A stretch of DNA of 63,743 nucleotides from an uncultured Clostridia bacterium. Its GTDB lineage: Bacteria > Bacillota > Clostridia > Christensenellales > UBA1242. The position numbers were made by a program, and so were the translations under genes. Position 1 is the stretch's first letter. Each line of letters opens with the position of its first letter. Shown here piece after piece: positions 47,860-48,022 of this stretch. The stretch is from positions 1-63,743 of the forward strand of contig CALKLQ010000053.1 in the NCBI GenBank assembly GCA_937992055.1. The letters run 5' to 3'. The notes below the pieces were generated by a model. It was not told the origin of the DNA and searched no databases. It saw only the letters and a program-made list of their open reading frames with translations.

Positions 47860-48022
47860 GGTAGATAAAAAACTCAGACTGAAGAGAAAGGCTCGAGGCA
47901 AGGCTCGGAAAATGCTACAAAGAAGTTTAGTTGACTTAAATGACTGTTTTGAGCATTTTACACCAAGCACTGCATATAAATTTGCCTGCAAATTTATGGT
48001 CGCGAGGTTTGTCTTCAGTCTG
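47860..48022 (+). repeat. structured intergenic repeat, divergent copy 3
   Basis: Shares TCAGACTGAAGA, CAAGGCTCG, AAAATGCT, TAAATGACTGT and TTTGTCTTCAGTCTGA with copies 1 and 2. The internal hairpins differ in sequence but still pair. Confidence 0.85.

Follow-up and report, generated by a model that had tools for sequence, protein, structure and literature searches.

Structured repeats of 170-174 bp in an uncultured Clostridia bacterium are probably miniature elements bearing the ends of a hairpin-targeting IS1182-family subgroup

The staphylococcal elements IS1272 and TnSha1, both members of the IS1182 insertion sequence (IS) family, insert into terminator hairpins (PMC4923244) and choose stem-loops with little primary-sequence specificity (PMC4923244, PMC5678879). 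The left terminal repeat of IS1272 is duplicated (PMC5678879). Among small structured mobile elements, bcr1 of the Bacillus cereus group, a MITE (miniature transposable element with inverted repeats) of ~155 bp, has a multi-helix structure preserved through compensatory changes (PMC3184786, summarising Økstad 2004 and Klevan 2007). SPRITE, ERIC and Correia repeats are short, lie near gene ends and, when transcribed, form terminator-like hairpins or long ones, with possible effects on neighbouring genes (PMC3184786). Here we describe a structured repeat present in three copies (c1, c2 and c3) in a 63,743-nt stretch of DNA from an uncultured Clostridia bacterium (Christensenellales; UBA1242; contig CALKLQ010000053.1 of assembly GCA_937992055.1), which is called the window below. 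We are confident that these repeats are non-autonomous MITEs whose terminal inverted repeats are those of a subgroup of the IS1182 family that targets hairpins. This reading is favoured because the termini are of IS1182 type, the copies adjoin hairpins, whole hairpins are duplicated at insertion sites, orthologous sites are empty, and relatives are spread over many genomes.

An nhmmer search of the whole window recovers exactly three copies. Copy c1 (174 bp, 33369-33542, minus strand; repeat search and nhmmer) is inverted relative to c2 (174 bp, 40681-40854, plus strand; nhmmer E=6e-49), and the two form 174-nt arms that are 98% complementary, corresponding to 98% identity over 174 nt. Copy c3 (170 bp, 47854-48023, plus strand; nhmmer E=1.3e-40 against the family profile) has ~73% identity with c1 and c2 (blastn, 168 nt). 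The element, at 170-174 bp, has no transposase gene. A preliminary description of this DNA listed five blocks common to c3 and c1/c2, and all of them lie at the places claimed in c3, on the plus strand: TCAGACTGAAGA (47874-47885), CAAGGCTCG (47899-47907), AAAATGCT (47909-47916), TAAATGACTGT (47937-47947) and TTTGTCTTCAGTCTGA (48008-48023), which is the right terminal inverted repeat. For the 12-mer TCAGACTGAAGA, 0.29 occurrences are expected in the window, and there are six, which form three inverted pairs. This 12-mer had been regarded as the edge of the element, a view that does not hold: the conserved unit starts 20 nt upstream, at 47854 in c3, 40681 in c2 and 33542 in c1. From left to right, the element has outer and inner left repeats and a right repeat, and the stem described earlier as closing the structure is formed by the inner and right repeats. 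The outer left repeat of c3, TCAAAGGGTAGATAAAA (47854-47870, plus strand), is degenerate; c1 and c2 read TCAGTGTGTAGACAAAT.

All three copies terminate in TTTGTCTTCAGTCTGA, and this right-terminal 16-mer is identical at the ends of full-length IS1182-family elements (loci L027, L068, L070, L071 and L145) and of many MITEs. A scan of public viral contigs with the 16-mer gave 25 matches, among them L027, where a 1546-bp element with the ends TCAGAGTGAAGACAAAC... and ...TTTGTCTTCAGTCTGA has an identical 30-bp terminator hairpin on both flanks. Its 470-aa open reading frame (ORF) scores 459 bits on the NCBIfam model NF033551, “IS1182 family transposase” (cut-off 270), and matches the Pfam families DDE_Tnp_1_6 and DUF772; four further full-length elements with these ends score 434-459 bits on the same model. 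Full-length ISs of this kind measure 1.5-1.7 kb. At the left, c1 and c2 have the same first 16 nt as a MITE in an Eubacteriaceae genome (L109). The outer left repeat of c1 and c2 also matches, at 15 of 16 positions, that of a 1582-bp element from a Tissierellia metagenome-assembled genome (MAG; L138), which has the right terminus of the window element, a perfect 27-bp hairpin duplication and a 233-aa ORF that was not scored. According to the preliminary description, a match to a known MITE or IS end family, together with a cognate transposase elsewhere in the genome, would speak against a structured RNA or single-stranded DNA (ssDNA) element. As regards the ends, such a match exists, in that they are IS1182-family inverted repeats.

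In species-representative genomes, the 16-mer was found at no fewer than 120 loci. Among the matches listed, these loci are mostly from Bacillota (Lachnospiraceae, Oscillospiraceae, Ruminiclostridium, Streptococcus and bacilli), many of them at contig ends; an IS1182-like ORF lies within 400 nt inside 17 of 124 ends, and 57 of 124 ends fall at the edge of a contig or a locus, a position in which an IS would be collapsed. Also among the matches listed, 47 of 116 ends, compared with 24 of 580 controls, have a subterminal hairpin with a T-run behind it when read inward, and a subterminal helix of the window element (helix a, below) may correspond to this hairpin of the IS group. A pattern spanning both the outer and the inner left repeat had no match in the species-representative genomes.

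Most of these elements lie beside hairpins. Of the ends carrying the 16-mer among the matches listed, 95 of 123 have a perfect hairpin (≥6 bp) no more than 4 nt away, compared with 22 of 615 positions drawn at random from the same loci, and a T-run follows 85% of the end-abutting hairpins. In loci that include both ends, full-length elements are flanked by perfect direct duplications of the whole hairpin (30, 19, 23, 24 and 27 bp), and MITE-like derivatives of 142-311 bp by duplications of 26, 22, 23, 24, 18, 24, 25 and 21 bp that are perfect or have one difference. Eight relatives of the window's own subfamily likewise have hairpin duplications of 17-30 bp, four of them perfect. The copies of the target hairpin adjoin the outer left repeat and the right terminus to the nucleotide, not the inner 12-mer. 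An inverted duplication of the hairpin, with reverse-complemented loops, was considered and rejected, as the loops were found in direct orientation.

Each copy in the window lies directly 3′ of a terminator-like hairpin, and for c1 and c2 a similar hairpin, specific to the site, lies on each side, with an A-run at the left and a T-run at the right. For c2, the left hairpin AAGAAATCTTAAATGAGATTTC (40659-40680, plus strand; 22 nt) has two mismatches to the right copy AAGAAATCTCAAATGAAATTTC (40855-40876, plus strand), which is followed by TTTT. For c1, read in the orientation of the element, the left hairpin CCATAAGAGAATTAAATTCTTATGG (33543-33567, minus strand) is related to the right copy CCATAAGAAAAATCCTATGG (33349-33368, minus strand), which is followed by TTTTTTT; CCATAAGA...TATGG is present on each side, with a loop indel between the two. 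Copy c3 is preceded by the hairpin CCCTTTGAAA...TTTCAAAGGG (47833-47861, plus strand), which overlaps the first 8 nt of the element.

The closest genome at hand (L002) is that of an uncultured Clostridia MAG whose RNase R is 80% identical and whose gene order is the same. None of the three copies is present at the orthologous sites of this genome. One hairpin alone occupies each of sites 2 and 3 there, in place of the window's hairpin, element and, for c2, second hairpin, and the 3′ half and T-run of the right-hand c1 hairpin are conserved in L002. This genome also matches the window in gene content and gene order with no elements present, and we therefore rejected the idea that c1 and c2 are the ends of a composite transposon around a 7.1-kb segment. 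In each of three further assemblies of this species from metagenomes, c1 and c2 are present, as is c3 in the single locus that extends to its site; therefore, the copies look fixed within the species.

Elsewhere, a scan with the interior block CAAGGCTCGNAAAATGCT revealed 20 or more homologous copies at unrelated loci in other uncultured Clostridia MAGs. These are mostly 173-174 bp long, with the terminal variant CAGACTGTAGA/TCTACAGTCTG, and several have whole-hairpin duplications. Many copies are found in the CALVML01 and CALVNK01 MAGs. MITEs with the same ends but other interiors were found in Ruminiclostridium, Oscillospiraceae, Eubacteriaceae and Lachnospiraceae MAGs (L045, L055, L076, L109, L115, L116 and others). 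They share the right terminus with the window element, have a left terminus of the TCAGnGTGTAGACAAA type and are flanked by perfect whole-hairpin duplications. Their interiors are mostly unrelated to that of the window element; the Ruminiclostridium set has weak blocks in common with it (z = 4.5-5.7, blastn negative). All of the features by which membership among IS1182-family MITEs can be judged from sequence are present, namely the ends, the small size with no transposase, the target duplication, and insertion polymorphism together with dispersal.

These observations are consistent with the following mechanism. An IS1182-family DDE transposase, encoded elsewhere or since lost, would bind TCAGTGTGTAGACAAA, the outer left repeat, and TTTGTCTTCAGTCTGA, the right repeat, and mobilise the element in trans. 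The element would have inserted at the foot of an intrinsic-terminator stem-loop, and we infer that two strand transfers take place at the 5′ feet of the extruded stem-loop, one on either side. Gap repair would then duplicate the whole hairpin, yielding a target duplication of 17-30 bp with one hairpin copy per side. This geometry would be that of pathway b in the published model (Wan 2017; PMC5678879), in which whole-hairpin duplication was proposed as an outcome, although IS1272 itself showed deletion. The elements described here would offer a clear multi-genome example of DDE-type elements that read terminator stem-loops by shape and duplicate the whole hairpin.

Compared with the described systems, the window element is most like IS1272 and TnSha1, in that the autonomous elements with its termini belong to the IS1182 family and also insert at terminator stem-loops, and in that its outer and inner left repeats recall the duplicated left repeat of IS1272. 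It differs from both in its length of 170-174 bp and its lack of a transposase, and the subgroup differs from IS1272 in duplicating the whole hairpin (17-30 bp); these comparisons concern family and target, the terminal sequences not having been compared with those of IS1272 itself. The element shares with bcr1 a small non-autonomous form, a non-conserved genomic distribution and a compensated multi-helix fold, a likeness drawn without sequence comparison. In contrast, bcr1 has 5-bp direct repeats, no known hairpin targeting and a partner transposase of another family. SPRITE, ERIC and Correia repeats differ in their termini, in their targets (TA or short duplications) and in their partner transposases. 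We found no paper on IS1182-derived MITEs of this kind. The element is of an ordinary kind, and its notable features are the hairpin-length duplications and the strand-specific conserved fold.

The fold of the interior had been the main subject of the preliminary description, which reported three helices maintained between diverged copies. Helix a (H4, an AT-rich subterminal hairpin) is a perfect 10-bp palindrome in both versions, GTAAAATTTT/AAAATTTTAC in c2 (40806-40828, plus strand) and ATAAATTTGC/GCAAATTTAT in c3 (47976-47997, plus strand). Helix b reads TTTAC/GTAAA in c2 and TTTAG/C(t)TAAA in c3, just as reported, and helix c is present as described but is imperfect in c3, where it has a bulge and a G·U pair. 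Helices c and b together make up a long helix, H3 (c3 47909-47959, c2 40734-40791; plus strand), that lies between an A-run and a T-run. The predicted fold of c2 has a free energy of -68.3 kcal/mol (z = -10.6 relative to shuffles) and that of c3 has -54.6 kcal/mol (z = -5.8). In an alignment of the three window copies alone (MAFFT/RNAalifold), there are two double changes and the covariation term is positive, which is unfavourable; this signal is weak, and c1 and c2, at 98% identity, effectively provide a single comparison.

The claim of compensatory change became solid only when 10 homologues from other genomes (gut Clostridia MAGs) were added to the three window copies. The Ruminiclostridium MITEs were left out of this 13-sequence alignment because they were negative by blastn and only short blocks matched. 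The consensus fold is the one drawn in the preliminary description, and its helices are indeed kept through compensatory changes. Among 57 pairs, 98.4% of cells are paired compared with 93.9% in shuffles. Both sides have changed in 11 pairs, compared with 3.6±1.5 in shuffles (0 of 500 reach 11) and 0-2 in slid controls, and in 26 cells compared with 5.4±2.5 in shuffles; the shuffle control ignores phylogeny, whereas the slid controls preserve relatedness. Helix a (10 pairs) is 100% paired with double changes in 5 of 10 pairs, and the C-G to G-C swap of helix b recurs (10 GC, 2 CG, 1 GU). H3 has 28 pairs, 98.6% paired, with double changes in three pairs and a conserved G·U at five positions. 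It is bordered by AAAAA and TTTTT in all copies, and the loop and bulge sequences TAAATGACT and GGAGTTTA are highly conserved. The closing stem (helix 1), in which the inner repeat TCAGACTGAAGA pairs with the right terminus, has 15 pairs with 96.9% of cells paired, and in relatives both of its sides change together to CAGACTGTAGA/TCTACAGTCTG. This last covariation is partly what inverted repeats bound by a single transposase would show. The 12-nt termini do pair with each other, as had been reported, but they are IS1182-family inverted repeats, and the idea that they merely close an RNA finds no support.

The fold is also strand-biased. In 16 of the 17 copies folded, the minimum free energy of the plus-strand RNA is -60 to -76 kcal/mol compared with -46 to -56 kcal/mol for the minus strand, an advantage of 12-29 kcal/mol (14-23 kcal/mol in the members of 173-174 nt). 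In c3 the plus strand is more stable by ~4 kcal/mol. Parameters for ssDNA give the same direction (-36.6 versus -28.4 kcal/mol), and the five conserved G·U pairs of H3 would be A·C on the opposite strand. Therefore, a single-strand structure, either RNA or top-strand DNA, is favoured over a symmetric duplex feature. Every copy closely follows the 3′ end of one gene or more, and orientation relative to neighbouring genes is unbiased (five copies sense only, five antisense only, six between convergent genes). The conserved long stem H3 is followed by GTTTTT, and a consensus terminator scanner calls nothing there. A promoter scan found no promoter that c3 has in common with c1/c2. A promoter-like site that faces outward (TTAACG, 18 nt, TGnTAAAAT) overlaps the subterminal hairpin in c2 (40794-40823, plus strand) and c1 (33429-33400, minus strand), where it is directed towards the HtrA-like gene; the scan puts this site at chance level, and it is not kept in c3. 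A small peptide translated from an internal ATG was rejected on reading the sequence, because a 1-nt indel shifts the frame between c2 and c3 and substitutions track base pairs, not codons.

Several points weigh against assigning the window repeats to hairpin-targeting IS1182-family MITEs. Published IS1272 insertions involve partial deletion of the hairpin and no target duplication (PMC4923244, PMC5678879). In the window, the c1 duplication is degenerate, c3 has no matching right-hand hairpin copy, and a simple scan called no terminators, neither H3 nor the flanking hairpins. Moreover, the duplications that flank c1 and c2 are more diverged than the 98%-identical elements themselves, and therefore an additional assumption is needed, either selection acting on the element or gene conversion between the two inverted copies, which are separated by 7.1 kb. 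By tblastn, neither the 63.7-kb window nor ~20-kb homologous stretches of the same species encode an IS1182-like transposase, and a cognate autonomous element in this genome is putative. The tip of the outer left repeat is variable among relatives (TCAG, TTAG, CCAG, TTTG and others), and some copies may no longer be mobile. Finally, the strong interior covariation and the strand bias go beyond what a plain cut-down IS would require.

It might be reasonable to consider the repeats a family of free-standing genes for a structured small RNA (sRNA), whose terminal 12-mers would serve only as a closing helix and whose flanking hairpins would be the terminators of neighbouring genes. The strong covariation, the strand-biased fold with its conserved G·U pairs, the fold z-scores (-5.8 to -10.6) and the highly conserved loops and bulges are all as expected for such a gene. 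However, we consider this very unlikely, given that the termini are identical to IS1182-family IS ends, that the flanking hairpins are site-specific duplications abutting the element to the nucleotide, that the element is absent at the orthologous L002 sites, and that the conserved unit runs 20 nt past the “closing” stem. There is also no promoter common to c1/c2 and c3. The preliminary description recognised no named RNA family, and the repeat matches none in Rfam 15: the whole window gave no matches at gathering thresholds, and permissive E-values on c2 and c3 gave chance-level matches only (E ≥0.05, far under gathering scores). Thus, of the earlier interpretation, the view that this is a structured element rather than repeat debris stands on the covariation and the strand-biased fold, whereas a discrete RNA gene is contradicted by the IS1182-type ends, the duplicated hairpins and the empty sites. 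The combination of a strong fold, real covariation and no Rfam match allows the element to mimic a novel structured RNA, and recognition of its ends averts a false sRNA call. Less probable still is mobilisation as ssDNA, in the manner of IS200/IS605 (PATE/REP) or IS91 elements, with the hairpins recognised by a Y1 or HUH enzyme. Elements of the IS200/IS605-type PATE/REP kind insert 3′ of a short specific sequence and have a Y1 transposase partner, and the strand-biased fold, hairpin-rich ends and hairpin targets would suit this mode. However, IS200/IS605 elements have, to our knowledge, neither terminal inverted repeats nor target duplications, and the window element has true terminal inverted repeats (12-17 nt) and long target duplications. 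The autonomous elements with these ends encode IS1182-family DDE transposases instead of Y1 or HUH enzymes, and no Y1 or HUH gene was seen beside any end.

A third alternative concerns only the role of the fold and is compatible with the assignment to MITEs. The element might carry a host-acting RNA payload, such as a terminator or insulator or a stabiliser of 3′ untranslated regions, as do SPRITE, ERIC and Correia elements, with copies persisting where they are useful or harmless at terminators. H3 is long, contains G·U pairs and lies between AAAAA and TTTTT in all copies, every copy is just past the 3′ end of a gene, the plus-strand RNA is the more stable, and precedents are known (PMC3184786). 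Nevertheless, the copies show no bias in orientation to the adjacent genes, where a bias should result if read-through fed a strand-specific RNA function; no terminator is called by the consensus scan; and the loops are more conserved than a terminator needs. We regard this alternative as possible, but doubtful. It is improbable that the fold is a cis-acting single strand (top-strand DNA or RNA) needed by the hairpin-targeting IS1182-type transposase for recognising or processing the element or, in a second version, a functional RNA spread by the MITE. If the fold does act in cis, the element would be showing hairpins to an enzyme that itself targets hairpins, and this would be structure-guided, possibly replication-fork-linked transposition, which is undescribed for DDE transposases.

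For an IS1182-family MITE, we offer the following assignments of the interior with low confidence. H4 and the closing stem may be the subterminal hairpins usual at the ends of this IS group, and H3 with its T-run may be a built-in transcription stop or an RNA-stabilising hairpin that acts when the element is transcribed. Our best guess ranks inherited end hairpins combined with a module resembling a terminator, which is tolerated or of use at terminators, ahead of a cis-acting single-strand structure, with an RNA payload in third place. The copies lie between genes and terminators; examples are positions 63 nt upstream of the HtrA-like gene and right behind the gene for a 1044-aa surface protein, and the copies could change the termination or expression of host genes.

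Some other occurrences of these sequences were recorded. A long form of the element (~274 bp; L192, L202 and L225) has an extra module of ~100 nt (GGGGTACCCCGTAAATGC...) between the long helix and the subterminal hairpin. Paired 12-mers had no match in viral contigs and a single match in genome contigs, in Streptococcus sp. ZJ151 (L001), where a 147-bp element (5502-5648) has 13-17-nt termini as in the window element. Only the termini are common to the two; the unrelated interior of the Streptococcus element has two opposed terminator-like hairpins and a TGTATAAT motif, and ACGAAGT is present on both flanks. Paired 12-mers in marine metagenome contigs (L005-L009) were rejected as candidates, since they proved to be only convergent pairs of identical tRNA-Phe genes with an A/T-rich spacer; these matches are coincidental because TCAGACTGAAGA is also the anticodon arm of eukaryote-type tRNA-Phe(GAA). 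In another locus (L054, ~1680-3562), two inverted 235-bp MITEs with the same termini surround ~1.4 kb with a 349-aa non-transposase ORF, an arrangement that resembles a composite transposon.

The neighbourhood of the window copies is ordinary chromosome, with genes for an HtrA-like protease, a DUF1858 protein, a Band-7 protein and RNase R, and further for the 1044-aa Ig-domain surface protein, a TraG/HerA-like ATPase, a GNAT protein and MazF; the window has no tRNA or tmRNA gene. Upstream of the RNase R gene is an ORF-free, AT-rich spacer of ~700 nt (39976-40680), where the whole spacer in L002 is 262 nt, an excess beyond what the 174-bp element explains. Between the right end of c3 and the GNAT stop codon, ~140 nt (48024-48162) have no counterpart in L002, which has a 92-nt spacer with one terminator. 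Just downstream of c3, a MazF/PemK toxin gene (121 aa, Pfam E=1e-36; 48749-49337, minus strand) overlaps an upstream 88-aa ORF, and the two probably form a toxin-antitoxin pair of type II. The window has one copy (31142-32061) of a unit in which a 111-aa DUF4926-like gene adjoins a 180-aa ORF, and the same unit is present in two tandem copies in L011 (14964-16271) and three in L010 (17915-19610). Because L010 and L011 are assemblies of the same species, this unit varies in copy number at the strain level.

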